From IMG/VR virus record IMGVR_UViG_3300048998_000149, positions 36,510 through 100,509 of that record: a stretch of 64,000 nucleotides of DNA, one strand, 5' to 3'. Each line of letters opens with the position of its first letter. The stretch's first letter is position 1. The DNA comes from a virus (taxonomy: Duplodnaviria > Caudoviricetes). The translations under genes and the position numbers were made by a program. The notes beneath the pieces were generated by a model. It made no database searches. It saw only the letters and a list, made by a program, of their open reading frames with translations, and was not told the DNA's origin. Of this stretch, positions 45,068-60,688 are shown piece after piece.

Positions 45068-45218
45068 GCGGGAATCCCGCGCACCCAACGGCGGGAATCC
45101 TGGCGGGAGTCTGCGGGAATCCCGCGTGACCCGTTGGCAGGAATCCCGCAGGACCCGAGGCGGGAACCCCGCGCCCCTCCACCCCCTGGCCGGGCGGGAA
45201 TCTGCGCGGGGTTCCCGC
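45068..45218. repeat. Intergenic array of 8 GCGGGAWTCCCGC-like near-palindromes
   Basis: Copies at 45068, 45091, 45103, 45113, 45137, 45160, 45194, 45206. Confidence 0.85.
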
Positions 45219-45251
45219 TGGTGAAACTACCGACCGAAGGGCGCGTGCCGC

Positions 45252-45722
45252 ATGCCTCGCTGGTGGCGTCTGAGAGATATCCCCAGGAAACGTTACGGTC
45301 GCCGCCGCATGCTCCTCGGCCTGATCGGCGTCATCTGGCTGGCGTACGGGTGGGGGCTGTTCAACAGCCCCGCGTCGTCGCTGAGGCAGTTCGGGCATCT
45401 CCCCAGCCTCATCGACGAGGTGCTCTCCGACCACCGCTCCGCCCTGCTGTGGGCGCTGTGCGGGTTGACGGGAATCGCCGCCGCCGTGTTGCCGCGGGGG
45501 CGCATGCCCGACGCCTACGGGTTCAACGCGCTGCTCATGCCGCCGCTGATCTGGACTGTGCTGTCCGGCTGCTCCTGGCTGATTTTTGTGATCACCCGGG
45601 GGGAGTTCGGCAGCCCCCGCAGCTGGATGTCGGCGGTGATCTGGTCGGCCGCCGTCACCGTCCTGCTCATCACCTCCGGCTGGCCCGACCCAGACGACGC
45701 CGACCACCCGGGCGAGGAGTGA
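45252..45722 (+). CDS. Four-TM membrane protein of lysis region
   Basis: Hydrophobic helices; position before endolysin. Confidence 0.65.
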   Translation: MPRWWRLRDIPRKRYGRRRMLLGLIGVIWLAYGWGLFNSPASSLRQFGHLPSLIDEVLSDHRSALLWALCGLTGIAAAVLPRGRMPDAYGFNALLMPPLIWTVLSGCSWLIFVITRGEFGSPRSWMSAVIWSAAVTVLLITSGWPDPDDADHPGEE

Positions 45723-46141
45723 CGGCGGTGTCCTCAACGTGGGTAACCATCCTGTCCGCGTCCGGCGGCATCCTCGCCGCAATCGTCACCTACCTGGGCA
45801 TGCGGATCACCCAACGCCAAGCCGCGAAAGCCCAGCAAACCACCGCCGAAATCGAAACAGCCAAGGTTGACGCGCAGGCCTACGCGGAGGCCCGCACGAT
45901 CTGGGATTCCCTCATCAAGGATCTGCGGAACACGGTCGCCGACCAGCGCCGCGAGATCACGAAGCTGCGCGAGGAGACAGCGAGTTTCCGCGCCCGACTG
46001 GAAGACCTCGAGCAGAAGCGCAGCGGCGACCGCTACGCCATTCACGTGCTCACCGTGTACGCCCGGCAGCTCCTCAAGGTGATCACAGCGGCTGATCTGG
46101 TGCCGCCGCCCCCGCCCGAGGGATTGGATCTCGAAGGATGA
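45719..46141 (+). CDS. N-terminal TM plus coiled-coil lysis-region protein
   Basis: GTGA overlap; TM, heptads, PPPPP end. Confidence 0.65.
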   Translation: MTAVSSTWVTILSASGGILAAIVTYLGMRITQRQAAKAQQTTAEIETAKVDAQAYAEARTIWDSLIKDLRNTVADQRREITKLREETASFRARLEDLEQKRSGDRYAIHVLTVYARQLLKVITAADLVPPPPPEGLDLEG

Positions 46142-46341
46142 GCGTCGCCGACGAACTCGTGGTGACGGCCCTGGTCCGCGACCCAGACAAATGTCTACGG
46201 CTCATCCAAAGGCACACGCCCACCGGCAAACGGTGCCGTGAGTGCTGCATCCCCGCCACTCTCCCGCAGCCCTGCCGCCCCTACCGCTTGGCTCGAATCG
46301 CCGCCCATCGGATGGAGTCCGAACGTGTCCGCAGCAGATGA
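46138..46341 (+). CDS. Small hypothetical protein
   Basis: ATGA overlap; H...C.EC...PC. Confidence 0.45.
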   Translation: MSVADELVVTALVRDPDKCLRLIQRHTPTGKRCRECCIPATLPQPCRPYRLARIAAHRMESERVRSR

Positions 46342-47386
46342 CGCCTGGCGCAATGACGACCTAGGATGGTTCCGGCACGTCCCCGGCGTAGACGACGAGC
46401 CGCTCGCCGCAGAGCTCGCACCGCTGGCGAGCCCGAACGCCAGCACCAACGCGCTGGGTATTGATTGCGCGAGCTATCAGGGTGTCCCGAACTTCGTGCA
46501 GGTGGCCGCGTCCGGGCGTTCGTTCTGCTATCTCAAGAGCAGCGACGGGGCAAGTTCCAGCTACCCATCGCTGGACCCGCAGTATCAGGGTGCCACGGCT
46601 GCCGGGATGATCACCGGGCTCTATCACTACGCCCAGCCAGCGTTGACCCCCGAAGCGAATGCCGATGCGTTCTCGGCCCAGGTCAACCGTCTCGGCGCGA
46701 TCGTCGGCCACCTGCCGCCATGTCTTGACCTCGAAACAGGCAGCGGGAACCTGTCCAGTTGGGCGCAGCGGTTTGTGACGCGGCTGCGCGCCAACACTGG
46801 GTGCATTCGGGTGATGGTCTACAGCAACGCGTCGTTCTTCCAGAACCAGATCACTGAGTCCTGGATGGACTCCAACATCGCGCTGTGGATCGCCAGCTGG
46901 GGAACGGCGCCCGGTAAGCCTTCGTACACCAGTCCACGCGTGGCGCTGCACCAATATTCGTCCACAGGCCTGGTGTCGGGAATCGCCGGCAACGTCGATC
47001 TCTCCTATGCGATCTGGCCCCTCTCGACCCTCGTCCCAGGTTCGGAGGCACCTCCCGTGACCACTCCCCCAGCCGCCTCGGCCACCAGCGTTCTAACCGC
47101 TGACGAGCAGGCCAAACTCACCGCCTGCTACCAGCAGTTCTCCGGCTCATCGGTCGTGGGTCAGTGGCCAGGCTGGGCCAGTTGGCCGAGCGGCTCCGGG
47201 CGCTCGCTCACGTTGGTCGACTATTGCCGGCAGAACGACGTTGCGATTGTGGCGCTGAAGGACGAGTTGGATGCGATCAAGGCTCAGCCGTCCGCCATGT
47301 CGGGCGCGCTGTCCGACACGGATGTCACGCGGATCGCCACTGCTGTTGCCGACTTGATGGCTTCCCGGATGCAGAACCGGCCGTGA
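46325..47386 (+). CDS. Endolysin, GH25 muramidase
   Basis: GID.ASYQG, YLK.SDG, G.YHYA, LDLE, LWIA.W, HQYSS.G.V.GI.GNVD. Confidence 0.9.
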   Translation: MSAADDAWRNDDLGWFRHVPGVDDEPLAAELAPLASPNASTNALGIDCASYQGVPNFVQVAASGRSFCYLKSSDGASSSYPSLDPQYQGATAAGMITGLYHYAQPALTPEANADAFSAQVNRLGAIVGHLPPCLDLETGSGNLSSWAQRFVTRLRANTGCIRVMVYSNASFFQNQITESWMDSNIALWIASWGTAPGKPSYTSPRVALHQYSSTGLVSGIAGNVDLSYAIWPLSTLVPGSEAPPVTTPPAASATSVLTADEQAKLTACYQQFSGSSVVGQWPGWASWPSGSGRSLTLVDYCRQNDVAIVALKDELDAIKAQPSAMSGALSDTDVTRIATAVADLMASRMQNRP

Positions 47387-47685
47387 CCCGCCGCTGCCTG
47401 CGGGACCGCTCAGACCTCGTCTGGGCGACGTGGCTGGGTTCTTCTCTGGCGACGTTCGCGGTGATCGAGACCGTCGCGTATCGCACTGGCCGGCCCAAGA
47501 CGTTGAGCCGCTCGCTGTGCCGCTGGCTGGGCATCTACCCAGCAACCCGGTGGCGGCACGCCTCCGTGGTCGCGTTCATCGCGGCGTGGCTTGCCCTAGT
47601 CGTGCACTTGGAAACGCTCGACCGGCCTCTGCCCCTTCGACGCCCTGGCCACTCCCCCCGAAAGGTCACCCGATGGCACTCCTGA
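47383..47685 (+). CDS. Small membrane protein (holin-like)
   Basis: FAVIE..A, TLS, AWL.LVVH. Confidence 0.55.
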   Translation: MTRRCLRDRSDLVWATWLGSSLATFAVIETVAYRTGRPKTLSRSLCRWLGIYPATRWRHASVVAFIAAWLALVVHLETLDRPLPLRRPGHSPRKVTRWHS

Positions 47686-48089
47686 CCGGTCCGATCGAAT
47701 CGAAAGTCCAGGCAGCCAGCCTTTGGACGCTGGGCGCGTCGGTGGGGATCGCGGTGCTGAACGCTGTCGCCGCCAACTCCACGCTGCTGGGCGGGCTGCC
47801 CGCCTTGGCGCAGTTCGCGATTCTTGCGGCCATCCCGCCGACTGCGACGTTCCTCGCCGGCTATGTCGCGCCGAGCACGCCGAGACCCGACCTCTACACC
47901 TACGGCATGCCGGCTGAGCCGTGGCTGCCCATGCCGCCGGAGCCTGCCCAGCCTGCCCCTCCTGCCGCCCCGCTGCCACCGTCGTATTACGACGCGCCGT
48001 ACAGCGACCAGCCGTACTCGTCCGCCCACTACGAGCCGGCGGGCGAGCCCACCCGCAACTTCGACAATCGCGGCCGTCACCGCGCCTGA
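47673..48089 (+). CDS. Holin
   Basis: IESKVQAA, LLGGLP, TFLAGY.AP.TPR typical of actinophage holins. Confidence 0.75.
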   Translation: MALLTGPIESKVQAASLWTLGASVGIAVLNAVAANSTLLGGLPALAQFAILAAIPPTATFLAGYVAPSTPRPDLYTYGMPAEPWLPMPPEPAQPAPPAAPLPPSYYDAPYSDQPYSSAHYEPAGEPTRNFDNRGRHRA

Positions 48090-48106
48090 AACGCACTCCC
48101 CCTTCG

Positions 48107-48136
48107 AGGCCACGGCCCTTTCGGTCGTGGCCTTTC
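48107..48136 (+). terminator. Hairpin after lysis cassette
   Basis: AGGCCACGGCC ... GGTCGTGGCCT TT. Confidence 0.55.
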
Positions 48137-48200
48137 CTGTGGGCAGCGCAGCCCCCGACTTGTAGACGCCAATCCCAGTACCAACGAGGGGGCCGCGCCC

Positions 48201-49481
48201 ATGATTTTCCTACTGCCGGTGCTCCCCCAGTGATCGAAGCAATGATGGCGCCAGCGGTCACTATCGACGCTGGCTGGGCTGCTATGGCGACCGGCGTGCT
48301 GGCTGTCGCGGCGATCGTCGTGGTATTGATCGCCAGCGCCCGGGTGAAGTGGGTGACCCGCACTTTCGGCATCGGCTCGGTGTACGGGACACACCGCGCA
48401 CTCGGCTTGATCGCCTTCGGGGCGGTCGGACTGCACATCGTGTTCGTGCTCGACGAGAGCTGGCTGAACATTGCGCTGCTGTTCCCGTGGTCGGGCACGT
48501 ACGCATCGAAAGCCGCCGACACGTCCACGCTGGCCCTGGTGGCGCTCATCGGTTCGGCGATGTGGCGGCAGCGCCGCAACTACGACCGTTGGCGGTACTC
48601 GCATCTTGTGCTCGCCGGTGTGATGACGATGGGCGCCGCACTGCACGTGTTTTGGCTGAACCACCTCATCCAGGACCCGATGGGGCGGGCGTGGTTCATC
48701 GGCGTGGGCTCGCTGGTGTTGGCGGGCGGCCTGTATCGGCGCGTGTGGACACCGCTGCGCAACGGGCCTTACCAGGTGGTGGGGGTGCACCCGGAGAGCC
48801 CGACGGTGTCCACGGTGACTCTCGCCCCGCAGCAGGGGCGGCATCGCCCGAACCGGCGTGAAGCGCATTTCGCGCCAGGCCAGTTCGGCTGGTTGCGTCT
48901 GAACCGTCGGGCGGCGAGTGCTGACCATCCGTACTCGTTTTCGTCGTCGGCGCAAAACTCGCATCAGGTTCAGGTGACGGTGAAGCGGGGCGGCAAGTTC
49001 ACGGAGCGCCTGGTGGGGACGCGGCCTGGGCGTGCGGTGTGGATGGATGGTCCGCATGGCGGGTTCATTCCGCCTAAGGGGGCCGCCGGGTTGGTGTTGA
49101 TCGCGGCGGGGGTTGGCATCACGCCCATGATGTCGATCATTCGGACGTGCGCGGATCGCCGCGACCGCCGTTCTATCCGCCTGGTGATGGTGGCGGAGTC
49201 GCCCGCCGAGTTGCTGTTCACCAGCGAACTTGACCGGCTCAAGCAGACATTGAACTTGGCTGTCATCCGGATAGTAAGCCGCCCACATCCCGAGTGGGCA
49301 GGTCTGACTGGGCGCATCGACGCGCTGATGTTGCAGCGGGCGTTGCCGCTGCTCAGCGGGTGGATGCGCACCCAACACTATTACCTAATTTGCGGACCGC
49401 CGGCGATGGTTTCCGACACTTCCGCCGCCTTGGCGCTGGCCGGGGTGCCACGCAACCGAATCCACACAGAGCAATTCCTGA
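48201..49481 (+). CDS. Ferric-reductase-like TM domain plus FAD/NAD-binding FNR domain; apparent single-base indels at both ends
   Basis: Haem-ligand His pairs HRALG..LH and YSHL..LH; PGQF, HPYSFSS, DGPHG.F, AAGVGITP, CGPP.M, IHTEQF; open frame as sequenced runs to 49888. Confidence 0.8.
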
Positions 49482-49505
49482 TGCCCAGCCCGAAGGGGAA
49501 CTCCC

Positions 49506-50849
49506 GTGCGCCGAAACATGCTCGCCCGGCTGCTGACGATGTTGGCCCTCGCCGGCCTCGTCCTCAGCCTCACCGCCGAAACGGCGTGGGCCGACCAGCC
49601 GACACAGCCCCAATCCCAGTCGTTCGTGACGGGCGACCAGGGGGACAGTCGGGACCACGGCCAGAAGCAGAAGGTGACGCTCGCGGCGCCCAACCCCAAC
49701 TGCACCATCGTGGTGCCGCCCAACCCCCTGTCCGCGGCGGGTTTGGCAACCCCATACGAGTTGACCGCAACGGACCGCAAGGCTGGCCCGTGCAACGAGG
49801 CCAACGCGGCGCAGAGCGCGTTCGTGGAGGCGACGATCCTCGACCCGGCCACCGGCGCGGTTTCGATTTACCGCCCCCTGGTCATTGACCGGGGCACCCG
49901 GCCGGCGATCCCAACGGTGCTGCCGGTGCTCCCGGCGAACGCCGTGGTGGGGATCTGGTTCGGGTTCCAGGGCACCACGCTGACCTTGGCGCACGGCTAC
50001 GGGTGTGTGAACGGCCTGTTCAACAACCCGTTCGGCCAGTTCGCCTACTGCAACGCCCCAGCGTTCTTCAAGGCCGCACATGCAGCTGTGACCGCCGGTC
50101 TGTTGCAGATACCGCCGCTGGGCACTGGGCTTGACGGGCTACCGTGCCCCAGCACCCGCGACTTTTCGGTGGTCGACCAGGACCAGTCCGACAACGTCAT
50201 CACCAAGTATGTGGCGCTGGCGAACGGTCAGACCGGCCAAGACACCGGACAACTCCCGCCGGGGGCGGTGTACCTGACCAACGGCTCCGACAACGGGCTG
50301 CTGAGCAAGTTCATCCAGCCCGCCCTCGGGTGCGTCCCGTTCTCTGCGCCCGACCAGACCGCTAACGGCCGCACCTCGGTGTCTTTGGCGTTGAACGAAC
50401 TCCAGGCCGGGTTGCAGGTCGCGCCGGTTGCGCTGGTGCCGCCGAACGATCCGATGGTGCTGGTCAACAACCGGTTCTCGTTCCCGAAGATGAACCTGTA
50501 CCGGCTGGGTGTTGACCAGCCGTTCGCGTTCCAGCCCATCGCCGCGGCGAACTACTGCCAAAACCTGATGGTGGTCGCACAGGCTCGGTTGATCCTGGAT
50601 CGGACGTTCGAGGTTGGTAAGCCGTCCCCCGACATTGCCATGGCGCCCGACTTGGCACAGTTCCTGCAGGTGCGCTTCGCCGCCACCCTAGTGAATCTCA
50701 ACTGCCCGACCGGCACACCTGTCGGGCAGAACAACCGGAGGCAGAACAACTTCTTCGGCCCCCAGCGCACCCCGGGAGACAGTTCCGGCGCCGTCCCCGG
50801 CGACAACTCGGGTGACTACTCCGGCGACTACACCGGCGGGGGAAACTGA
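49506..50849 (+). CDS. Secreted Cys-containing protein of unknown function
   Basis: Signal peptide ending AWA; NPNCT..VP.NPL.A.GLATPY, VVDQDQSDNV, NGSDN, ALNELQA. Confidence 0.8.
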   Translation: MRRNMLARLLTMLALAGLVLSLTAETAWADQPTQPQSQSFVTGDQGDSRDHGQKQKVTLAAPNPNCTIVVPPNPLSAAGLATPYELTATDRKAGPCNEANAAQSAFVEATILDPATGAVSIYRPLVIDRGTRPAIPTVLPVLPANAVVGIWFGFQGTTLTLAHGYGCVNGLFNNPFGQFAYCNAPAFFKAAHAAVTAGLLQIPPLGTGLDGLPCPSTRDFSVVDQDQSDNVITKYVALANGQTGQDTGQLPPGAVYLTNGSDNGLLSKFIQPALGCVPFSAPDQTANGRTSVSLALNELQAGLQVAPVALVPPNDPMVLVNNRFSFPKMNLYRLGVDQPFAFQPIAAANYCQNLMVVAQARLILDRTFEVGKPSPDIAMAPDLAQFLQVRFAATLVNLNCPTGTPVGQNNRRQNNFFGPQRTPGDSSGAVPGDNSGDYSGDYTGGGN

Positions 50850-51355
50850 TGGGCTACCGAGGACGCCACCGAGCCCCCGCCCCCCGCATCGCGGTCAACG
50901 CGGCGCGGATCGCGGTCGGCGGCCTGGTGTTGGCGGAAATCACCGGCGGATTCCCAGCCGTGCCGGCCTACGCATCCACCCCCGTGGTGCTCGCGTCGAG
51001 CCACCACAGCACGGACGGGGCCGACAAGCACCTCGCCCACCGTTCGAAACATCACCGCCACCATCCGGCCCAGCACGTCAAGGCGCCTGTCCGGCCTGCC
51101 GTCACCCACCAGGCGGTAACTGCCGCCGTGTACGAGGTGGCACCTGCAACCCCGGAGTCGCAGCCGGCCCCTGCGGCAACCCTCGACCAGCAACAACTGC
51201 TGTTCGACCACTACATCGTCATGCCCGGGGACACCCTCACCCACATCGCCGCCGCCTACCAAGTGCCGTGGGAGTCGCTGTGGGCGTTCAACACCGACGC
51301 CATACCCCACCCCGATGCGATCTACCCAGGGCTGCGACTCCGCCTGCCTGCCTAA
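50849..51355 (+). CDS. Secreted LysM-domain protein
   Basis: Signal peptide; YIV.PGDTL..IA....W..L...N...I..PD.IYPG..L.LP. Confidence 0.85.
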   Translation: MGYRGRHRAPAPRIAVNAARIAVGGLVLAEITGGFPAVPAYASTPVVLASSHHSTDGADKHLAHRSKHHRHHPAQHVKAPVRPAVTHQAVTAAVYEVAPATPESQPAPAATLDQQQLLFDHYIVMPGDTLTHIAAAYQVPWESLWAFNTDAIPHPDAIYPGLRLRLPA

Positions 51356-51382
51356 CCACCACCCCACCGTAAGGAAGGCACC

Positions 51383-51949
51383 ATGAAGCGCACCATCGCT
51401 GCCCTGGCCGTCGTTGTCGCCGCCGCCGGCGCATCCCTCGGCCTGTCCGGCACCGCTTTCGCCGCCACCGCCGTCGACTGCACCAACGCGGTGGCCCTGT
51501 CCGCCACCGCGCAGACCAACTACACCAACGCCCTCAACGTGGCGATCGCCCGGGCGAAGGAGCTCGGTTTCACTGCCGACCAGATTTCTCTGGCGCAGAG
51601 CATCCTCGTGCAGGGCAACATCACCGACGCCCAAAAGGCCCAGTTGATGATGATCTACAGCGAGCACATCAGCATGCTGAGCGTCACCACCGACCTGGCG
51701 AAGGTCAAGGCTGTACTCGACACCCGGCTGACGCTGAACGCGGCCATCGCGGCTCAGGGCATCGCGTGCGCGGGCATGACTGTCCCCGCCCCGGCGGTCA
51801 CCCCGGCTCCGATTGCCACCCCGGCCATGCCGGCACCGGTGTACACCGTGCCAGCTGCCCCCGTGGCGCCGGCGTGTCCGACCACGATGACCGTCCCCAT
51901 GGTCCCCTGCCTCGCCCCGGCTACTGGCGATGGAAGTTCGCAGCGCTAA
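51383..51949 (+). CDS. Secreted protein, probable class F sortase substrate
   Basis: Signal peptide AFA; Pro-rich stalk; C-terminal APATGDGS next to the sortase. Confidence 0.65.
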   Translation: MKRTIAALAVVVAAAGASLGLSGTAFAATAVDCTNAVALSATAQTNYTNALNVAIARAKELGFTADQISLAQSILVQGNITDAQKAQLMMIYSEHISMLSVTTDLAKVKAVLDTRLTLNAAIAAQGIACAGMTVPAPAVTPAPIATPAMPAPVYTVPAAPVAPACPTTMTVPMVPCLAPATGDGSSQR

Positions 51950-52038
51950 CTATCCACTGTCCAATTGTCTGCAACTCTCGAGGTGGGGGTCCCTCACGCC
52001 ATGATCACGCCGACCATCTCGAACCCCAGGGGGGTGTC

Positions 52039-52665
52039 GTGAACTGGCGCGCCATCCTTGCGGGTGGCGTGTCAGTCACGGCGATCGCCGTGGTGGGGAT
52101 TGCTGTCGCCAGCAGTCCCTCAACGCCGGCTACCGCTGCGGCACCAGCGGCTGCCAGCGCTTCGCCGATAGCGAGCACCCCAGCGAGTGCGCCCGCTACG
52201 GGAACCCCGGCGCCTACGGTGGCGCTGCCCACTTCGGTGAGCATTCCAGCAATCAAAGCCATGTCGTCGCTCATCCCACTAGGTGTCAACCCAGATCTGA
52301 CCGTGCAAGTCCCAGACGTGCACCACCCCGAGCAAGCGGGGTATTTCGCCCTAGGTGCGCGCCCGGGCGAGATCGGGTCAGCGGTTCTATTGGGTCACGT
52401 TGATGGCGATGGCCGGCTGGGAATCTTCAACCAGATCGGGAAGCTGAATCTGGGCGATCTGATCCAGGTCGGGCGTGCTGACGGTTCGACGGTCACCTTC
52501 AAGGTGACGCGCGTCCAGACCGTTCTCAAGGCCAACTTCCCCTCCGCCGATGTCTATGGTCCGACGACCGACGCCGAGATCAGGCTCGTAACCTGCGGCG
52601 GCACCCTCGATAAGGCTGCACACAACTATCTGAGCAGTGTGATCGTGTCCGGCAAGCTCGCTTAA
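52039..52665 (+). CDS. Class F sortase
   Basis: N-terminal TM; P..V.IPAI, PGE.GSAVLLGHVD (His), L..GD.I, IRLVTCGG (Cys), Y...VIV. Confidence 0.9.
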   Translation: MNWRAILAGGVSVTAIAVVGIAVASSPSTPATAAAPAAASASPIASTPASAPATGTPAPTVALPTSVSIPAIKAMSSLIPLGVNPDLTVQVPDVHHPEQAGYFALGARPGEIGSAVLLGHVDGDGRLGIFNQIGKLNLGDLIQVGRADGSTVTFKVTRVQTVLKANFPSADVYGPTTDAEIRLVTCGGTLDKAAHNYLSSVIVSGKLA

Positions 52666-52687
52666 CTCTGTCGAGGGGCGGGCCGCC

Positions 52688-53146
52688 ATGAACGCCGCAG
52701 ACAAACGGTTGCTGCGGCGCCTCCTGGCGTGGATGGTTCCGGCTGGGATAGCGGTCGGGATCTGGGGCGGCCTCACCTACCGGGAGCTGCCCTTCCCTAT
52801 GCCTGGCGATCCCCCCGCATCATCATCGCCCGCACCTGCACCACCAACCATCACCTCGGCTCCGGCGCCGACTCCGGTCGCGCCGGAGCCGCAGGTGATT
52901 GTGGTTCCCCCCAACCCCATCACCGTGACCGACACCCCCGCTCCGCTGCCGCCGGTCACTGTCACGCAGACTCCGGCGCCAGTCACTGTCACTCAGATCC
53001 CCACGCCGACTCCCCTGCCGGTGCCGCTGCCCGCGCCGACGGATGTCGCCCCGCTGAGCCCTGTCGAGCCGAGCATCCAGCCGCCGGTTCCACTCACCAC
53101 CGACCCGGGAGATGCGCCATGGCCACCATCTACGGCCGCGGGTTGA
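52688..53146 (+). CDS. Membrane-anchored Pro/Thr-rich protein
   Basis: One TM then PVTVTQTPAP repeats. Confidence 0.6.
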   Translation: MNAADKRLLRRLLAWMVPAGIAVGIWGGLTYRELPFPMPGDPPASSSPAPAPPTITSAPAPTPVAPEPQVIVVPPNPITVTDTPAPLPPVTVTQTPAPVTVTQIPTPTPLPVPLPAPTDVAPLSPVEPSIQPPVPLTTDPGDAPWPPSTAAG

Positions 53147-53274
53147 TGCGACGCCGTTTCGCGCTGTGCCCGTACGGCTGCGGCCGTGTGATCCGGGCCT
53201 GGACGAAGCGGCGCGTGCTGTTGGAGCTGCACCGCCACACGGCTGTGTGCCGGTGGAATCGCACCTGGAGCTGA
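53146..53274 (+). CDS. Small basic C2HC-type peptide
   Basis: TGATG overlap; CPYGC...H...C. Confidence 0.4.
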   Translation: MRRRFALCPYGCGRVIRAWTKRRVLLELHRHTAVCRWNRTWS

Positions 53275-53389
53275 ACCGGTTCCCCTGCCGCATTCGGGAG
53301 ATGCGGGGTCGAGCCGGTTCAAGGTGGCCCCTCGTCGCCTCGCAGCCCCCTGCGCGGTGGCTCGGCGGCGGGGGGCCACCGCACTAATT

Positions 53390-53971
53390 GTGTACCGCAG
53401 ATTAACGATGCGAATGTGGCGCTTCGGCCCGTAATGTCGGGGCTGCTCGGCGTGTGTCTTTCACTTTAGCCACATTGCTTACGCCGAACGGCTGAATACT
53501 GGACAGGCACCGGCCTGAACGGTAACGATGTTCGGGCTGGTGACGAACTGGATAGCGCGAGACCCCTCCACCCCTGGGTGGATCAAGGAGTCAAGACCTC
53601 GCCCCTTGATCCGGTAATGGGGCGACCCCGACTAGCACACACTCCCTGGTAGGCAGCGCAAGTCGGGGCCGCGTCCTAGTACGTTACTCAGCGGTAGCGG
53701 CCCGGTCCATAAGGGGCGAATCTAGACTACTGAGCTACAACCCTGTGGGTTAACAGGGTATTGAGGAGTCCCCTTCCCTGCCGGGAATAAGGCCCCTCTT
53801 TTTTTCTGTCCACATTCTCAGGATCTTGCACAGGCAATTCCCATACTTCACATAATTGGTCGGAGAACTGTCATTCTCTCGGGGAGAACCGTCATTCTCC
53901 CCCCTCGCAAAAACTGAAGGCCCTCGCCACATCCCATTTTTATCACGGGATGCTGGCGAGGGCCCTTTTTT
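53390..53971 (+). other. Structured non-coding region: candidate ncRNA and/or replication origin
   Basis: No convincing ORF, many stems, lower-GC tract, 21-bp-period direct repeat, terminator at end. Confidence 0.4.
53919..53971. terminator. Bidirectional intrinsic terminator
   Basis: GGCCCTCGCCA.ATCCC...GGGATGCTGGCGAGGGCC with T6 after and A5 before. Confidence 0.7.
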
Positions 53972-54002
53972 GCGTTTGCGCCCCGAACTGGACTGTAAGA
54001 CC

Positions 54003-54986
54003 TCAGTTGCGGGCCACCGCCACCAGGTGGGGAGAACGCTCCGACGGCGGCAGGATGCCCCGCTCCTTCAGGGCCGCCTTGGCCTGCCGCCCGTACTTCG
54101 TGTCAGCGCCGAGCAGCTTCGCCGCATCGGTGCCGTTGAGGTCCTTGCCCTCCGCCCACTGCTGCTCGAGCAGCGCCATCAGCTTCTCGAACTTCGTCCT
54201 GCCGGGCAGTTCGTCTGCCAGCGGGTTCCCGCGTTCCTCGGCGGGTTTCCCGCGTGTCGCCGCTGCGGGAGTCCTGGAGGATTCCCGGCGGGATACCCGG
54301 CGGCCTTCCCGCGCCAACTCCCTCGCGGATTCCCGCGTCGCGTCCGCCTCGGCCTGCACTCGGATCCGTTCCAGATCGGCGGCGTGTTCCCGCGCCTGCC
54401 GCTCTGCCTCCCGCTGGTCAGCGAACTGCTGCTGGCGTTCCCGTTCGGCCGTTTCCCGCGCCTCCCGTTCCTGCCGCTCCTGGGATTCCCGCGCCTCCCG
54501 CCGAGCCCGCTCGGCCTCGGAGACCTCCCAGGAGGTCGCCATCGCGTGCAGCCCCATGACTCGGATGTAGAGCACCACGGGCACCGTCCCGGCGATCAGT
54601 GCGATCACAGGACGCAGCCACGACGGCAGCACCACGCTGGCGTCGAGCGCCGCAAGGACAGTGTGCAACGCATTGAACGCGATGATCGCCACGAACGCGA
54701 ACAGGATCGTGTGCCGAGCGTTGCGGCGCACCGGCCAGTCACCGTCGTGCGGCAGCGTGGCGTCGTTGCTGTAAGGCATGACCACGACGACGCCCAGGTC
54801 CACGATCACCGGGTACAGGTACGCCCACGGGTCGGGAACTCCAGCCCACTTGACCATCTCGTATGACCCGTATGACACCCAGACGAGGGCGAAGAGCCCG
54901 AGGCTGTGCAGCGCGCGGCCACGCCAAGCCCGGCGACGAGCTACTGAATCATCGTCATCTGCCCGTTCCGACAGCGCGTGGCTCAT
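54003..54986 (-). CDS. DUF2637-like (plasmid spread, Spd-type) membrane protein with coiled coil and C-terminal HTH
   Basis: Four TM helices, VSY, AYLYPVIVD, FNALH; RE-rich coil; LNGTDAAKLLG..TKYGR HTH. Confidence 0.7.
   Translation of the reverse strand: MSHALSERADDDDSVARRRAWRGRALHSLGLFALVWVSYGSYEMVKWAGVPDPWAYLYPVIVDLGVVVVMPYSNDATLPHDGDWPVRRNARHTILFAFVAIIAFNALHTVLAALDASVVLPSWLRPVIALIAGTVPVVLYIRVMGLHAMATSWEVSEAERARREARESQERQEREARETAERERQQQFADQREAERQAREHAADLERIRVQAEADATRESARELAREGRRVSRRESSRTPAAATRGKPAEERGNPLADELPGRTKFEKLMALLEQQWAEGKDLNGTDAAKLLGADTKYGRQAKAALKERGILPPSERSPHLVAVARN
54221..54495 (-). repeat. GCGGGAWTCCCGC-like motif cluster inside the DUF2637 gene
   Basis: GCGGGTTCCCGC, GCGGGTTTCCCGC, GCGGGAGTCC, GGATTCCCGG, GCGGGATACCCGG, GCGGATTCCCGC, GGGATTCCCGC. 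Confidence 0.7.
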
Positions 54987-55294
54987 GCCGCATCCTCCCC
55001 CGCTAGCAACGCTTTGCCTTGGGCCACGCGATACCCGACGGTGTCCTTGTGGATACCCAGTTCCCTGTCCACATCCCGGTAGCTAACCTTCCCCGGACCC
55101 TCGCTGTTGGCGATGGCCAGGGCGATCGGCAGGGCGTCCTTGGCTGCGTCGAGGATGTGGTGCACGCTCCGGACGTGCTGGATGTTCGCGTCGTGGTCAT
55201 CGCTGGCGGGTCGGCGGGCGTAGGCCCGGATCTGCTTCACGATCCGGGCGGCTTCACGGTCGGGTTTGCCGTTGGCGCGGGGCAGCGTAGACAT
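54983..55294 (-). CDS. Small HTH protein
   Basis: SYRDVDRELGIHKDTVGYRV. Confidence 0.65.
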   Translation of the reverse strand: MSTLPRANGKPDREAARIVKQIRAYARRPASDDHDANIQHVRSVHHILDAAKDALPIALAIANSEGPGKVSYRDVDRELGIHKDTVGYRVAQGKALLAGEDAA

Positions 55295-55396
55295 GATTCG
55301 GCGTCCTTCGGGTGTCGGGATACGCCGGACAGGTTAGGCGAGGGGAGGCTGTCGCCGCTTCCCGACACGCCGTCATGGGATTACCGCGCCCGCTAC

Positions 55397-55684
55397 TTAG
55401 GCCGGCTTCTGCCAACGAGTGGGGATGCGCATGTTGTGGATGGGCGACTCTTCCGCGTAAACGCGGCGCTCCTCATTCTCCGCATCTTCACGGGTCTGAT
55501 GCCAGGTGACGCGCGTCTTGGCAATGTCCCACCACCACCGCCAAGCCGTGCTGCGGTGCTGGTTGTACCTCTTCTGCGGATCCCTGGCGCTGCCCACGTA
55601 CAGAAGCGCACCGTCTTTGTCGTAGTACCGGTATACGGCGACCCTGCCGGGTTGCTGCGACCAGTGGTCGGACCTAACCATCAA
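55397..55684 (-). CDS. GIY-YIG nuclease domain protein
   Basis: VYRYYD..G.LLYVGSA.DP..R..QH...E.R....E.P.HN. Confidence 0.8.
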   Translation of the reverse strand: MMVRSDHWSQQPGRVAVYRYYDKDGALLYVGSARDPQKRYNQHRSTAWRWWWDIAKTRVTWHQTREDAENEERRVYAEESPIHNMRIPTRWQKPA

Positions 55685-56511
55685 GCGCTCCTGTACCGGT
55701 CAGCGACCTGGCGCAGGATGGCGCTGGCCTCATCATCGAACACCGCGAGCGGCTCCAGCTTGGCGAACTGCTCGACGTAGGGAGACACGTCGGGAGGGAT
55801 CAGGACGACCTGCCTCCGCAGGATGCCGGGGACCACCGCGCTCTCGTCGTACAGATTCCAGTTGGATACGGGGAACACTGGGCGCGGCGTACCGAACGGA
55901 ATGATTCCGACGCGGACGACGGGCTTCCTGGCTACCAGTTCGATGTGTTCCAACTGGCGGACCATCATCTCGGGCGGCCCTGCGGCCCATCCAAGGGCGC
56001 CTTCGGTGGTCAGGATCGTGATCCGACGCCCGGGTTCATCAAGGACGTTCTGGCCTTCGAGACGCGCCCTGACTGAACCCCCCGCATCGGCGGGCGTCGT
56101 ACCCCCTGCAGCGAAGACCGCCTGCATGTACTCGGCTGTCTGCAGCAGGCCGGGGATGATGACGGGGGAGAACTCGCGGATCTCCGTGGCGTCGCGGTTG
56201 AGGTCTGCGATTCGTTTCTGAAACTCGGCCCGGTTCGCGCGGGATAGCACTACGCGCCGGTTCGTGGCCTTGACGTGTTCAGCTAGTTCGATCAGGCGCT
56301 GTCGGATCTCTGTGGGTGCGTGGTATGCCTCTGCGAGCTTGGCTACGTCGGCCGGGTTCGGGACGTTGTTCTCCCTCTCGATACGGCTGATCTTGGCCTG
56401 GGAGAAGCCCGTTCGCTCGGCCGCTTGCATGCCGGTGAGCCCGGCGTCCTGGCGGAGCTGTTTCAGGGTGCGCGACAGCTCGTTCAGGCCGCCGGGTCCG
56501 GTGTTTGCCAT
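55681..56511 (-). CDS. XRE-family HTH regulator with DUF5753 domain
   Basis: L..LR..AGL, SQAKISRIE, IPGLLQTAEY, EGAL, M..QL.H, VGIIP. Confidence 0.9.
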   Translation of the reverse strand: MANTGPGGLNELSRTLKQLRQDAGLTGMQAAERTGFSQAKISRIERENNVPNPADVAKLAEAYHAPTEIRQRLIELAEHVKATNRRVVLSRANRAEFQKRIADLNRDATEIREFSPVIIPGLLQTAEYMQAVFAAGGTTPADAGGSVRARLEGQNVLDEPGRRITILTTEGALGWAAGPPEMMVRQLEHIELVARKPVVRVGIIPFGTPRPVFPVSNWNLYDESAVVPGILRRQVVLIPPDVSPYVEQFAKLEPLAVFDDEASAILRQVADRYRSA

Positions 56512-56518
56512 CGGTCGG

Positions 56519-57058
56519 TCAGGCCGCCCGCCGCTGCCGGTACTCGGGATGCGCGGCGCGCCACTCGTCATATTCCACGGCCTCGTCCCACATGGCCTGG
56601 GCCGCCTTGGCCCATGCCTCAGGGAGGTCGGCCACCTGGGCCTCGAAGAACTTGCCCTGCGGGTCGTAGTAGCTGATCGCTACCCGCTCCCCGCCGTTGA
56701 TCACGAAGCAGTCCGTCAGGTGCCCGAGCTCCTGCTCGTCCACAACCAAGACCCGGATCTGCTCCCCGTACTCGACGTTCAGTGGGAACTGGACGCCCAA
56801 CTCAAAGCGCAGATAGTCGTTCAGCGGCCCCTTCGGGATCACGCGGACTCGACGCAGGACAGTGCCTCCGGCGACATTGGCGCGGATGCCGTCCAGCCAT
56901 CCTTGCCATGCATCGTCGACCTCAACGGTTCCATCGTCGAGCCACCGTCGAAAGTGCGGATCGTCGCCAGCACTGTCGTACCAGTCCCGCGTCTCGACGC
57001 GGAGCCGGTCGCGCGTGCTGGGTCGGCGCAGGTAGGCGCCGAGTTCCTTCAGGTCCAT
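56519..57058 (-). CDS. DUF6879-like protein
   Basis: R.ETRDWY, G...RRVRV...PL.DYLRFE, N...GE.IR. Confidence 0.8.
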   Translation of the reverse strand: MDLKELGAYLRRPSTRDRLRVETRDWYDSAGDDPHFRRWLDDGTVEVDDAWQGWLDGIRANVAGGTVLRRVRVIPKGPLNDYLRFELGVQFPLNVEYGEQIRVLVVDEQELGHLTDCFVINGGERVAISYYDPQGKFFEAQVADLPEAWAKAAQAMWDEAVEYDEWRAAHPEYRQRRAA

Positions 57059-57061
57059 GGG

Positions 57062-57256
57062 TTACCCCTTCAGTGCTCGCAGGAGCGCCGCCGGCACGAC
57101 CACGAGGTCTTCGTTGCCGGGCAGGCTGAGCTGTGCGCGGGTGGCAGCGTCGGGCCGGTAGCCGCGCATAAGCAGGCTCCCGTCCTCGAGTTCGTAGATC
57201 TCGGGGCAGTCGTCGCCTGCTCCGCAGTCCTTGGCCAAGCTCCTGACGATCTTCAT
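57062..57256 (-). CDS. Small partner protein of DUF6879/XRE triad
   Basis: C....CP.IY....G...RGY, LP..E..V.VP..LL. Confidence 0.7.
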   Translation of the reverse strand: MKIVRSLAKDCGAGDDCPEIYELEDGSLLMRGYRPDAATRAQLSLPGNEDLVVVPAALLRALKG

Positions 57257-57328
57257 GGGTTCCCTCCCGGGCCGGTGGTCCTTACCCGTCTAGTGTCCCC
57301 GCCATCAAGGTCGTCAGTCAATCTGGAC

Positions 57329-57356
57329 TTGAATATACGGATCGAAGGTGCATAAT
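57329..57356 (+). promoter_or_regulatory. SigA-like promoter for the transfer operon
   Basis: TTGAAT-16 nt-CATAAT in the divergent intergenic region. Confidence 0.5.
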
Positions 57357-57458
57357 GGCAACTAACCGGGACGCCCGCCGCTGACAGTGGACTTCCCTCC
57401 CCGGCTCGTGGCGGGTGACCCGGCTCCACTGACCTCCTACGCGGGAGCTGCAAAGCCG

Positions 57459-57743
57459 ATGACCACCGTCCAGCGCAACTACGAACTGTCCGAGGAGACC
57501 AAGGACCTGATTGACCAGGCGTACACCGCCCTTGACAAGGAGGTGTGTGCGATGCGCAAGCGGTTCGCCACTGAGACGGCCGCATGGCAACGCTCCGATG
57601 CTGGAGGGTTCGCGGGGGACTGGCTGGCAGACATGGCGCAGCTGCGCGACGCCGTGATGATCGCCGAGTGGAACACCAACCCTCTCACTGATGGCTGCAC
57701 TTCGTTCGACGAGAACGGCGACCCGATCGACGACGATGACTAG
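57459..57743 (+). CDS. Hypothetical protein
   Basis: GGGAG RBS; first gene of operon. Confidence 0.55.
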   Translation: MTTVQRNYELSEETKDLIDQAYTALDKEVCAMRKRFATETAAWQRSDAGGFAGDWLADMAQLRDAVMIAEWNTNPLTDGCTSFDENGDPIDDDD

Positions 57744-58065
57744 ACCGGCCCCCACCCCAAGAAAGCCCGCGACGTCTCCCCTGGCCGGCGGGGACGTCGC
57801 GGGCGCCGGTCTGACTGTCGTCGAGGACCTGCACTGGTCGAAGCGTCTGGGCACCTACCGGCCGTCCGGCATGGGCGACAGTTGGCTGTTCGCCGCCCCG
57901 ATCGCGGGTACCGCCATTGGCTGGGTCATCAACCACGGCCTGTGGGCTCAGGTGCTTTACCTGGCTGCGGGGGCGTTGGTGCTGGTCATCCTGGCCGATC
58001 TGATCGCCGAGCAGGTTCAGAAGGTCGAGAAGAAGCGTCGCAGGCTGGCACGAGCCAGCAGGTAA
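57736..58065 (+). CDS. Small two-TM membrane protein
   Basis: Hydrophobic helices, basic tail; start uncertain. Confidence 0.55.
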   Translation: MTRPAPTPRKPATSPLAGGDVAGAGLTVVEDLHWSKRLGTYRPSGMGDSWLFAAPIAGTAIGWVINHGLWAQVLYLAAGALVLVILADLIAEQVQKVEKKRRRLARASR

Positions 58066-58104
58066 GTAACCGGCGCGCAGCGCCACGACAGGAAGGTGAT
58101 CGAG

Positions 58105-58266
58105 ATGGGCAAGCGTGAGCGTGAGACGTTCAAGGCCGAACTGGAGAAGCTCGGCAAGATCAAGGAGGAGGGGCCGGAGTTCTACAAGCAGAACGCCAAG
58201 GTCGCCCGCGCGGAGAAGAAGCTCAACATCGCTGAGAACCTGTGGGTTCGGAACCAGGTGGACTGA
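58105..58266 (+). CDS. 53-aa charged protein (not in ORF track)
   Basis: MGKRERETFKAELEKLG...; AGGTG RBS; coupled to next. Confidence 0.5.
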   Translation: MGKRERETFKAELEKLGKIKEEGPEFYKQNAKVARAEKKLNIAENLWVRNQVD

Positions 58267-58406
58267 TGGGCATGTGGACACGAACGGTCCGCTCGAGTGT
58301 CAAGAAGACCGAGGTACGTGAGCAGGGTTGCCGGGGCGGCAGCTTCGGCGGCCGGGGCAGGACTGTCACCGGCAGCGCGCTGTCCGGCGGGAAGAGGAAG
58401 CGCTGA
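58266..58406 (+). CDS. 46-aa basic peptide (not in ORF track)
   Basis: TGATG coupling at both ends. Confidence 0.4.
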   Translation: MGMWTRTVRSSVKKTEVREQGCRGGSFGGRGRTVTGSALSGGKRKR

Positions 58407-58573
58407 TGGGCTTCTGCAAGGACGGCAACCACCAGCCGCGGCGGATGCGTCTGAATGACTGGGACGACGTGACCCAGTGCGCGCGCTCGGGCTGCGGGCA
58501 TTGGATTCAGGTCCACCACAACGTGCGGGGCTCGAACCCGAACTTCAGTCAGGGCAAGCGAAAGGGCGGGTAA
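58406..58573 (+). CDS. Small Cys/His peptide
   Basis: TGATG coupling; C....H...C....C. Confidence 0.45.
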   Translation: MGFCKDGNHQPRRMRLNDWDDVTQCARSGCGHWIQVHHNVRGSNPNFSQGKRKGG

Positions 58574-58576
58574 GCG

Positions 58577-60601
58577 GTGGCAGGCCGCCGTAAAAAGCTC
58601 CGCAACGCGAGCCCTATCGACTTGATGGGGCTCGTAGTTGTCTTCCTGGGCAAGCACGCCGGTCGGTTCGTGTGGCGTTGCCGGGCCGGGCTGATGCCGG
58701 TGTGGTGGTGTATCGCGTTCCTGGTCGCAGGCTGGGTGGGTTCGTGGTGGCCGCTGTACTGGCCCATCCCGATCAGCCTCGGGCTGGTGGTTGCGTCGGT
58801 GCTGTGGTTTGCGGGGGAGAAACTGTCGCCGCACGCACAGTCCATGTGGCTGTGGCTCGTCCCGGACGGCCTGGACGACGGCAAAGCCGGCGTGTTGGAC
58901 CGGGCCACCGAACGCGGGTATCTGTGCCTGCTGATGTTGGGCGGCGGTGGCTGGCTGTCGGCGCGGATGCAGTACGGCTGGGTCCAGGACGTCCAACTGG
59001 CGCTGCTGATCCTGCTGGCCGCGCTGGGGGTGCCGTGGTGGTGGCATCGGGGTTTCCGCCGCCGTAAGCCGTTGAACGTGTATGTGCGGAAGTGGAAGCG
59101 TGTCGAGCAGAACGAGGATTTGAAGGTTTGGCACGGCTCGAAGATCACGGGCACGACGACCGCGGCGAACGCGACGCTGCTGGTGGTGAAGCTGCGCGGC
59201 GGTCGCACCGTCAAACATGTCGGCGGGGATGCCCTGATCCTGTGTTCGCAGCTTGGGCTCCGTCCGGGGGCGATCACGGTGGCCGTCGACAAGGCGGCTG
59301 CTCGGCGGGTCCTGGTGCGGGTTGTGCCGCGCGACCCGTGGAAGGGGGCTCTTCCGCATCCGCTGCCGCCGGTCGGGTCGATGCTTCTGTCGAAGACCCC
59401 CAAGCCGACGGTCGGCAAGTATGAGGATGCTTCCGACGACATGCTCAAGCTTGGGCAACATCTCTTAGTGGTCGGCGCAACCGGTTCGGGCAAGTCGGTT
59501 TGGCTTGAGGCGTTGCTCGCGTGGATCTTGGCGTATGCGGATGCTCGGGTCGTCGCGGCCGACCTTGCCTCGGGCGCGACGTTCGGGATCTGGGAGACGG
59601 TGTTCGCCGCGCCCCTGGCCACGGATGTCCGGTCTGCGCTGGAGTTGTTGCGGCGCGTCTTCGGGGTCATCGAATACCGCGAGGGTCTGCTGTCGCGGAT
59701 GAAGCGCGAAGGTCAGCTCATCGACGTGCTCGAGCCGTCCCCGGAGATGCCGTGGCTGTTCTTCATCATCGACGAGTTCCCCGACCTGATCAAGGCGGCG
59801 AAACAGGCCAGCCTGGATGTCATCACCATCCTCGAGCGGCTGGCGAACAAGGGCCGCAAGGTTGGGGTGTGGCTCATCCTGGGGGCGCAGAACCCCACCG
59901 TCACCGATGTGGGCTCGACCGAGCTGCGCGGTGCGCTCACCGGCATCGTCGGGCTCGGCCTGTCGCAGCAGCAGTCCAAGACCTTGTGGGGTTCGGATCG
60001 CGCCGACGGTTGGGACTCGACGCCGCTCACGATCGGCACGTACCTGTTGCGGGATCGGGACGCCGAGCACCAGACGCCGCGGGTGGCGAAGGGTCTCTAC
60101 ATCCCCCCGCGTCAGCGTCTGGATTTGATCCGTGCGGCGTCATCTCGCCGCCAGCCGCTCGACCGACAGTCGGCGTTGATTCTCGAAGGAAACACGCCCG
60201 CAGTCCCGCTTGGGGAGACCGCCCGGACGGGCGCGTTTGAGGAGGTGGGGATGCCGGAGGCGGCGCAGCCCCGCCTCCGCGTGGTGCGGGAACCCGCCAG
60301 CGCCCGGGGCGGGAATCCCCCCGTGCTCGAGGCGGGAATCCCGACGCCTGCCGACGGAGGAATCTCGCGCGGGGCGTTCGCGGGAATCTTGGGGCACACG
60401 CGGGAATCCCGTTCGGCTGAACTTGACGAGAGGGTCTATGCCGAGGTTCCGGATTCCCGTCAGGGCGGCATCGGCGGGACAGACCTGGCAACGCAACTTG
60501 AGGTGTCGCGGGATCGGGTCAAGCGGTCGTTCGCCCGGCTGGAGAAGGCGGGGCGGGTCAGGCCTCACCCGCGTGGCGATGGCACCTGGTGCCGCACCTG
60601 A
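58577..60601 (+). CDS. traB: TraB-like FtsK/SpoIIIE DNA translocase
   Basis: N-terminal TM helices ending VPWWWHR, HLLVVGATGSGKS Walker A, FIIDEFPDL Walker B, GRKVGV.LI...QNP, C-terminal winged helix. Confidence 0.85.
   Translation: MAGRRKKLRNASPIDLMGLVVVFLGKHAGRFVWRCRAGLMPVWWCIAFLVAGWVGSWWPLYWPIPISLGLVVASVLWFAGEKLSPHAQSMWLWLVPDGLDDGKAGVLDRATERGYLCLLMLGGGGWLSARMQYGWVQDVQLALLILLAALGVPWWWHRGFRRRKPLNVYVRKWKRVEQNEDLKVWHGSKITGTTTAANATLLVVKLRGGRTVKHVGGDALILCSQLGLRPGAITVAVDKAAARRVLVRVVPRDPWKGALPHPLPPVGSMLLSKTPKPTVGKYEDASDDMLKLGQHLLVVGATGSGKSVWLEALLAWILAYADARVVAADLASGATFGIWETVFAAPLATDVRSALELLRRVFGVIEYREGLLSRMKREGQLIDVLEPSPEMPWLFFIIDEFPDLIKAAKQASLDVITILERLANKGRKVGVWLILGAQNPTVTDVGSTELRGALTGIVGLGLSQQQSKTLWGSDRADGWDSTPLTIGTYLLRDRDAEHQTPRVAKGLYIPPRQRLDLIRAASSRRQPLDRQSALILEGNTPAVPLGETARTGAFEEVGMPEAAQPRLRVVREPASARGGNPPVLEAGIPTPADGGISRGAFAGILGHTRESRSAELDERVYAEVPDSRQGGIGGTDLATQLEVSRDRVKRSFARLEKAGRVRPHPRGDGTWCRT
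60286..60460. repeat. GCGGGAATCCCG motif cluster in traB linker
   Basis: About seven copies (60286, 60309, 60332, 60356, 60380, 60400, 60449) read in different frames. Confidence 0.8.
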
Positions 60602-60688
60602 CGATGGTCCGCGCCTGCGCGCGTATAGACGTACACGCGAACCGCCCAGCAGCCCCACCGCCCGCCCAATCGCCCAGAGCTCGCCGGG

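Follow-up and report, generated by a model that had tools for sequence, protein, structure and literature searches.

Arrays of a directional 10-bp word, two of them within linker codons, are candidate clt-like docking sites of a TraB-type module in an actinobacterial phage

Previously, TraB hexamers of Streptomyces conjugative plasmids were found to assemble on the clt locus via direct 8-bp repeats (PMC4447253, PMC4170104). In pWTY27, clt overlaps the last 16 bp, that is, the 3' end, of traA (PMC3583192), and clt-like sequences in chromosomes are thought to permit chromosome mobilisation (PMC11571958). Sites within the gene of their own binder are also known: SpdA2 of pIJ101 binds palindromes inside spdA2, and the pIJ101 sps site is a 12-bp perfect palindrome, CGTCACGTGACG, which is present in one to three copies and is conserved across plasmids. 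SpdB2, a known Spd DNA binder, binds non-specifically (PMC4170104). Here we describe a phage locus that may belong with these systems. The DNA analysed, called the window, is the right-hand 64 kb (64,000 nucleotides) of the 100,509-bp IMG/VR virus record IMGVR_UViG_3300048998_000149, which is classed as linear and 86% complete. It carries a traB-like gene and, in and around the module of that gene, arrays of a short repeated word. An initial annotation of the window had compared the repeats with clt repeats bound by TraB and with the short palindromes bound by SpdA-type proteins, and those precedents proved to be real.

Alignment of 28 sites showed that the conserved unit is an asymmetric, directional 10-mer, GCGGGAA(T/C)CC. 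The initial annotation had described a near-palindrome in three clusters. The arrays are real, but the unit behaves as a directional word rather than as a full 13-bp palindrome of the dimer type, and a fourth cluster exists. The right-hand CGC that completes the near-palindrome is degenerate, its three bases being kept in 16, 19, and 14 of the 28 sites. The exact 13-mer (GCGGGAWTCCCGC) occurs only at 45068 and 45113, compared with 0.04 copies expected; allowing up to two mismatches gave 19 matches versus 4.5 expected, a number reached in none of 100 shuffles. Nine exact copies of the 10-mer are present in the whole record, and all nine lie within the four clusters; third-order Markov simulations, used as the background for this word, gave 0.23 copies on average and never more than 1. 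When up to one mismatch is allowed, the record holds 34 matches versus 8.2 expected. The density of exact 10-mers is 90 per Mb in the phage versus 3.2 per Mb in a Mycobacterium metagenome-assembled genome (MAG; L041), a difference of ∼28-fold, and none of the 401 genomes of the family to which this closest genomic relative belongs contains a phased pair of the word.

The four arrays contain five to eight copies each (Table 1). Two lie in linker codons ahead of the C-terminal tails of TraB and of a membrane protein, and two lie in non-coding gaps. Phasing of ∼23 bp, with starts every 22 to 24 bp, is seen in clusters 1 and 3; in these two clusters all copies point in the same direction, and the core is kept while the intervening spacers have diverged. 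Cluster 1, originally counted as eight non-coding copies, consists of seven clear copies and one degenerate copy, with start-to-start steps of 23, 22, 24, 23, 34, and 12 bp. It has a GC content of 72% and is taken to be non-coding because no frame shows a bias in GC content at third codon positions; no promoter-like or terminator-like site was found in it. The number of copies in the traB linker was also as first described, and the steps there are 23, 23, 24, 24, and 20 bp. Cluster 4, which lies outside the window, is located in the 114 bp that separate two small genes of the minus strand; a DUF7448 gene and dnaN follow just downstream. A further copy noted at about 60936 is a single site with one mismatch, and no strong copy of the word is present in the divergent promoter gap of the module (57257-57386).

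In the first three clusters, the word lies on the sense strand; in cluster 4, its orientation is mixed. A polarity toward a Xer/dif-like site, of the kind known for FtsK-orienting polar sequences (KOPS), was considered and dropped because the orientations are inconsistent among the four clusters. The sense-strand placement would also suit a signal acting in RNA, with small GCGGG-AAU-CCCGC hairpins as protein-binding or processing sites, and the RNA of cluster 1 gives a better fold than do shuffled controls (z = -3.7). However, the motif is degenerate in what would be the right arm of such a hairpin, and most copies are therefore unable to form the 5-bp stem. Given also the mixed orientation in cluster 4 and the lack of an Rfam family match, a signal in RNA is very improbable.

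The arrays within genes were compared with sequences obtained by synonymous-codon resampling, using the codon usage of the record itself, and sites with zero, one, and two mismatches were counted. The traB linker contains 3, 6, and 10 such sites versus 0.08, 0.99, and 3.74 after resampling (P < 0.002 for all three classes). The linker of the membrane protein (54200-54349) contains 1, 5, and 9 sites versus 0.02, 0.39, and 2.05 (P < 0.002 for the one- and two-mismatch classes and P = 0.022 for the single exact copy). In traB, the copies occupy codon phases 2, 1, 0, 0, 0, and 2 and are translated as VREP, GGNP, AGIP, GGIS, AGIL, and TRES, in agreement with the initial statement that the motif is read in different frames. 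The stretch from 54350 to ∼54505, which encodes an Arg/Glu coiled coil, showed no enrichment beyond codon expectation (P ∼0.15), the exact copy at 54480 excepted; its words are explained by the fact that CGG-GAA simply encodes Arg-Glu. Thus, the cluster that had been drawn from 54221 to 54495 is reduced to 54220-54336 plus that one copy. Because the copies lie in different frames and exceed synonymous expectation, and because the core is kept amid diverged spacers and is retained in relatives with unalignable linkers, the constraint acts on DNA rather than on the peptide, as had been proposed, and the directional 10-bp word is kept by selection.

A lack of function, with the arrays being a 23-bp minisatellite or the by-product of a peptide repeat that was copied to several places, would fit the period-23 arrays detected by Tandem Repeats Finder (TRF), the Arg-Glu codons that explain part of cluster 2, and the tandem repeats in unrelated viral contigs that happen to contain the same 10-mer. 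It fits poorly with a kept core between diverged spacers, with the use of three codon phases, with the excess over synonymous expectation in both the window and the related contig L026, and with retention of the word across relatives of 60 to 72% identity whose linkers are unalignable; we consider it highly unlikely. Very probably, these are selected protein-docking arrays.

A scan of viral contigs for phased pairs of the word returned 16 contigs (GC content, 0.41 to 0.65). These were rejected as relatives, since none encodes relatives of the window proteins and they comprise a few unrelated tandem-repeat families; the number of such families is compatible with chance for a collection of this size. 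Some unrelated viral contigs of lower GC content share a 23-bp tandem unit that starts with the same 10-mer, GCGGGAATCCAGCAA.CAAG.AT, in two to four copies. The common core and period in those contigs are probably a coincidence, though a curious one.

The traB-like product matched Pfam family PF01580 (E = 2e-14) and FtsK entries in PDB, and its hydrophobic N terminus is seen in the translation. Identity to plasmid TraB proteins is ∼25 to 31%, over the ATPase domain only. AlphaFold2 modeled the C-terminal tail with an H-H-H-beta-beta topology (pLDDT 85.5), and Foldseek matched the model to winged helices of Z-alpha, GntR, and IclR (E = 3e-4 to 1e-2). The tail, directly behind the traB array, is therefore confidently predicted to be a winged helix. 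The tail of the membrane protein was modeled as three helices with a helix-turn-helix (HTH)-like arrangement (pLDDT 76) and had no significant match in structural or profile searches. The initial annotation had placed both in-gene clusters just ahead of C-terminal HTH coding parts, which holds for traB, but the tail of the membrane protein is only HTH-like. Its assignment of the membrane protein to DUF2637 did not stand: the match to Pfam DUF2637 (PF10935) had an E value of 3.4 and a score of 8 bits, below the gathering cut-off of 22.8, and only a weak sequence match (E = 1.7e-5) to one DUF2637-named protein was obtained. Homology between the two tails was considered as well and could not be established (BLASTP E = 0.007; hhalign P = 0.012), and a hidden Markov model of the TraB tail misses the membrane-protein tail. 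The genes for the XRE-type regulator and the DUF6879 protein sit between the two array-bearing genes and are syntenic in L041 (Mycobacterium sp. MAG) and L028 (metagenome contig); the module as a whole (54.0-60.6 kb, which includes small plus-strand open reading frames [ORFs]) is conserved in both.

Directly downstream of the membrane-protein gene is a non-coding stretch of ∼600 bp that is among the lowest-GC windows of the record. It contains two copies of GGAGAAC(T/C)GTCATTCTC at a distance of 21 bp, along with terminator-like hairpins that precede T-runs. No Rfam match and no tRNA match were found in it, and a role in regulation, in attachment, or as an origin is conceivable.

Table 1. Positions of the word arrays, genes, and other features (window positions unless a contig is named)
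Feature	Position	Strand	Description
Cluster 1	45068..45218	+	Gap between tail-protein gene and first lysis-region gene; TRF period 23
Cluster 2	54220..54336	-	7 copies, mostly on the coding strand, in two codon phases; membrane-protein linker codons (amino acids [aa] 217-256)
Isolated exact copy	54480..54492	-	Within Arg/Glu-rich coiled-coil coding part
Cluster 3	60286..60460	+	7 copies; traB hypervariable linker codons (aa 570-628); TRF period 23
Lone one-mismatch copy	60937-60949		Within linker of convergent GIY-YIG gene
Cluster 4 (outside window)	G000:C1:6784-6876 = L001:1500-1595		5 copies, mixed orientation
Tail protein, pectate-lyase-like	42907-44991		
First lysis-region gene	45252-45722
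GH25 endolysin	46238-47386
Ferric-reductase-like membrane flavoprotein	47921-49888		Cargo-like
LysM-domain protein	50849-51355		Cargo-like
Low-GC non-coding stretch	53390-54000
Membrane-protein gene	54003..54986	-	N-terminal hydrophobic segments, Arg/Glu coiled coil, cluster-2 linker, HTH-like tail (~54042-54203)
Small module ORF	54983-55294
Truncated GIY-YIG ORF	55397-55684	-	95 aa; first half of domain only
XRE-type regulator	55681-56571	-	HTH_31 + DUF5753
DUF6879 protein	56519-57058	-
traB-like gene	58577..60601	+	674 aa; N-terminal hydrophobic segments, FtsK/SpoIIIE ATPase, variable linker, C-terminal winged helix
TraB C-terminal winged helix (predicted)	60401..60598	+	AlphaFold2, Foldseek, PHROG HTH match
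GIY-YIG endonuclease gene	60558..61496	-	Convergent to traB; MarR-like winged helix; Pfam
TraB-type tail winged helix of nuclease gene	ORF 60689-61009	-	After frame change at C-run near 60830
23-bp tandem unit, unrelated contig	L067 5655-5733
23-bp tandem unit, unrelated contig	L061 2938-3010
23-bp tandem unit, unrelated contig	L058 1822-1900
23-bp tandem unit, unrelated contig	L071 10246-10281
Dense own-word array	L010 9380-9720		CGGWCC
Dense own-word array	L014 9340-9700		GGCACCG/GGTGCCA

Scanning of viral contigs with the single TraB protein returned no relatives; alignment-based scans did find them. The TraB homologues form a family, many of whose members are on contigs of 40 to 107 kb, and conservation in the family alignment is good, the exception being an unalignable linker, rich in gaps, that directly precedes the final ∼65 residues. 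In L026 and L027 (TraB 60% identical), the corresponding traB linker carries five copies of GGGAATC, although the peptide is unalignable; in L026, sites with zero, one, and two mismatches number 2, 6, and 10 versus 0.05, 0.57, and 3.13 after resampling (P < 0.002). The traB linker of L041 (TraB 72% identical) carries weaker variants of the word, with GTGATTCCCCC present twice, and the linker of its membrane-protein homologue contains a perfect 13-mer, GCGGGAATCCCGC, and four variants at the same relative position as cluster 2. A membrane-protein homologue of 87% identity (P0088) differs by an 8-residue (24-nucleotide) linker indel, which is the size of one repeat unit.

More distant relatives carry other words. 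The window's word is almost absent from L028 (TraB 50% identical), which instead has repeats of the GCCCCGC/GCCCCGCGAGG type, as judged by eye, at three places: the traB linker, an array that lies 300 to 500 bp downstream of traB, and the linker of the membrane protein. In the relatives G001 and G002, which are complete at 60 kb and have terminal repeats (TraB ∼37% identical), the window's word is at control level; each has a single genome-wide hot spot of its own word at the 5' flank of traB, CGGWCC in G001 and GGCACCG/GGTGCCA in G002. In distant 60-kb phages, the own-word arrays are very dense and run through the membrane-protein linker upstream of traB into the start of traB. The linker peptide of one TraB homologue of 59% identity (P0005) repeats RDVK/RDVT about six times, which suggests yet another DNA word in the corresponding position, possibly a GTGACGTCAC-like palindrome. 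These comparisons, in which arrays recur in the corresponding linkers or next to traB, link the arrays to the TraB module.

The traB end of the window resembles a clt locus in several respects: a neighboring FtsK-family Tra protein has a membrane part and a predicted winged helix, seven same-strand copies make up cluster 3, and the word is element specific. Because an FtsK-type pump with a winged-helix tail is found together with an element-specific, clustered direct repeat at its gene, and because the word changes among relatives, we interpret the arrays, by analogy and with middling confidence, as candidate cis-acting docking sites of a phage TraB-type double-stranded DNA (dsDNA) transfer module, that is, as a phage version of clt with its TraB recognition repeats. 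The reader of the word probably belongs to the TraB module; that it is the TraB head itself is a more tentative proposition, with a chance slightly under even. In such a system, the winged-helix heads of a hexameric TraB pump would read the word, the array inside traB would be the main loading site, and the distal arrays would be extra loading sites on the 100-kb genome, comparable to the clt-like sequences that have been proposed in chromosomes. The membrane-protein tail might recognize this word in place of TraB or alongside it, and keep the DNA at the membrane. The output would be transport of the phage or prophage DNA, in double-stranded form, through a septum or from cell to cell, in the service of spread or segregation. 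As a matter of geometry only, a 23-bp step rotates successive sites by ∼60 to 75 degrees, and six sites could face the six heads of one ring.

Several observations weigh against the clt-like interpretation. Clusters 1 and 4 are far from traB, 15 kb upstream in one case and, if the genome self-closes, 10 kb beyond in the other. Neither has a counterpart in any relative examined, and no array follows the tail gene in the tail-protein relatives (L054-L057); these distal non-coding arrays are the least explained part of the system. We know of no report of regular 23-bp phasing for clt repeats, and known clt repeats are 7 to 9 bp long. The likely host group, which is Mycobacterium-like, is not a classical host of TraB conjugation. 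Within the distant 60-kb group, L013 and L015 share the TraB recognition helix SRATVFRRL and have different words, which hints that another protein may read such arrays. In addition, in the few relatives compared at the DNA level, the tail of TraB and that of the membrane protein vary jointly. For the covariation of motif and HTH, which the initial annotation had suggested as a check, the data are few and, in the distant group, ambiguous: other words accompany traB in L028 (as judged by eye), G001, and G002, and L013 and L015 break the pattern.

The membrane protein stays in play as the reader because, among the distant 60-kb phages, word and TraB recognition helix do not cleanly go together. 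Its HTH-like tail, rather than TraB, would read the word, and the arrays would tether DNA to a membrane or septal complex beside the pump, as a Spd-like anchor with specific sites. Cluster 2 stands just ahead of this tail in both the window and L041, and the best copy of the word in L041 is found there, its traB copies being degraded; in distant relatives, the hot spot is mainly in the membrane-protein gene upstream of traB. The absence of a significant structural or profile match for the tail argues against such a role, as do the position of the window's strongest arrays, which are in traB and in the tail-lysis gap, the strong traB array kept by L026, and the non-specific DNA binding of SpdB2 (PMC4170104). 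Overall, the membrane protein as sole reader is unlikely. Either protein, or both, may be the reader, with TraB preferred.

The record encodes a full set of tailed-phage virion and lysis genes. The gene upstream of cluster 1, initially labeled a tail spike, encodes a pectate-lyase-like tail protein, and the protein of the first lysis-region gene had no relatives among viral contigs. Past the lysis genes are two cargo-like genes that are unusual in a phage (Table 1). The left arm of the record is the location of genes for replication and recombination, whose products are DnaN, a DNA methylase, a RecT-like protein, and a Xer-type tyrosine recombinase. The host is a high-GC actinobacterium, the likely group being inferred from the closest genomic relative (L041). 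A near-identity DNA search against phage records gave no match to the record. At the protein level, the matches among phage and plasmid records were distant and confined to the ATPase domain, and no cultured phage or plasmid record is close.

This gene content bears on whether the arrays could be iterons or the centromere of a prophage that is maintained outside the chromosome. Their reader would then be a protein of replication or partition from outside the module, and they would act in copy control or segregation, as do the iterons of P1 and F or the dispersed sopC sites of N15. The geometry is iteron-like, with a core of ∼10 bp, variable spacers, a period of 22 to 24 bp, and five to eight copies in each of several arrays; a Xer-type tyrosine recombinase is encoded with no obvious arm-binding integrase; cluster 4 is in a replication-gene operon beside dnaN; and the ori iterons of lambda, which are phased sites, lie in linker codons of gene O, whose product binds them. 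On the other hand, a six-frame translation of the record, itself 86% complete, gave no match to PF02195, PF13614, or PF01656; no ParA or ParB being found there, a ParABS-type centromere is unlikely. No Rep-like gene adjoins any array, and an HTH_36 protein (G000 17701-18816) has no array. Cluster 1, at its high GC content, contains no AT-rich unwinding element, and the closest stretch of low GC content lies ∼440 bp away from cluster 2. Moreover, the arrays follow traB in relatives. We regard the iteron or centromere explanation as distinctly improbable. The initial annotation had offered clt-like and centromere-like loading sites side by side; the former are our preferred interpretation, and a centromere of the ParABS type is unlikely.

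The gene convergent to traB, inserted ∼90 bp from the traB stop codon, encodes a GIY-YIG endonuclease. The ORF reached after the frame change encodes a tail that matched the TraB-tail profile (hmmsearch E = 1.6e-11) and shares 55% identity with the tail of the TraB homologue P0007 and 46% with that of the resident TraB. The gene could be a homing nuclease with a captured pump reading head, a pseudogene, or an assembly error. That a homing-type nuclease near traB has acquired a TraB-type head fits, as circumstantial evidence, with a head that targets DNA hereabouts. A second GIY-YIG ORF is truncated; it lies between the XRE-type regulator gene and the small module ORF, 1.1 kb from cluster 2, and had no match in L041 or L028. 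An association of GIY-YIG genes with all four clusters was considered and rejected, as none is near cluster 1 or 4.

The proximity of the convergent gene to the end of traB, its bona fide TraB-type winged helix, and the truncated ORF near cluster 2 raise the question of whether the arrays are mainly recognition sites of the GIY-YIG endonuclease, either selfish homing targets or processing sites. The tail, however, is out of frame with the nuclease domain in the record and is nearer to the TraB tails of other lineages than to the resident one. Arrays are also present in L041 and L028, in which the window's GIY-YIG genes have no match, and clusters 1 and 4 have no such gene nearby. The probability of this explanation is accordingly very low. 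In a broader proposal, one word would serve as a common docking code for the TraB pump, a membrane anchor, and the GIY-YIG nuclease with its captured TraB head. The four phased arrays would turn the entire 100-kb genome into a substrate for export resembling conjugation or for segregation through a septum without ParABS, and a rotation of ∼69 degrees with each 23-bp step would place six sites around the helix so as to face the six heads of a single ring; we think that this is quite unlikely as a whole.

If the arrays are TraB loading sites, as the clt-like interpretation would have it, a tailed phage would have two routes of spread, virions and plasmid-style pumping of dsDNA, and its cis sites would be exactly mapped. 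Overprinting of a protein-binding code on linker codons in three reading phases calls for caution in annotation and in synonymous recoding. A nuclease with a borrowed TraB head would be a natural probe of what that head recognizes.

The gamma winged helix of FtsK reads a directional 8-bp word, KOPS. The phage system is similar in that the winged helix of an FtsK-type motor is found with a directional word, and it differs in that KOPS are dispersed and polarized chromosome-wide, whereas the phage word is arrayed. In contrast to lambda O, no replication initiator is associated with the phage arrays. The Streptomyces plasmid-phage pZL12 (and pSLE1), as described in papers that cite it, is an actinobacterial element that likewise joins tailed-phage virion genes and a plasmid-type tra function (PMC3583192, PMC4487206); pZL12 has ParAB and a Rep/iteron locus, neither of which was found in the phage record. 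As in SpdA2/sps, a gene of a conjugation module holds short sites within its own coding sequence, where they are translated as a recurring peptide (PMC4170104). Unlike sps, the phage word is directional, present in many copies, and lineage specific, and no SpdA homologue was identified in the phage; the record has no match to sps with up to one mismatch, and neither sps nor the pSVH1 word rises above background in it.

The closest counterpart remains the clt of Streptomyces conjugative plasmids and actinomycete integrative and conjugative elements. Both systems have a membrane-anchored FtsK/SpoIIIE-type pump with a C-terminal winged helix, predicted in the phage, and element-specific short direct repeats clustered at or overlapping the 3' end of a tra gene (PMC4447253, PMC3583192), and further clt-like sites have been proposed elsewhere on large replicons (PMC11571958). 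The phage locus differs in that the element is a tailed phage of 100 kb, with a 10-bp word phased at 23 bp, a main array wholly within linker codons, and four arrays in all, two of which lie 10 to 15 kb from traB. The principle, in the form of clt repeats and of sites within the gene of their own binder, is already known from Streptomyces plasmids; what the phage locus adds is scope and detail rather than a new kind of system.

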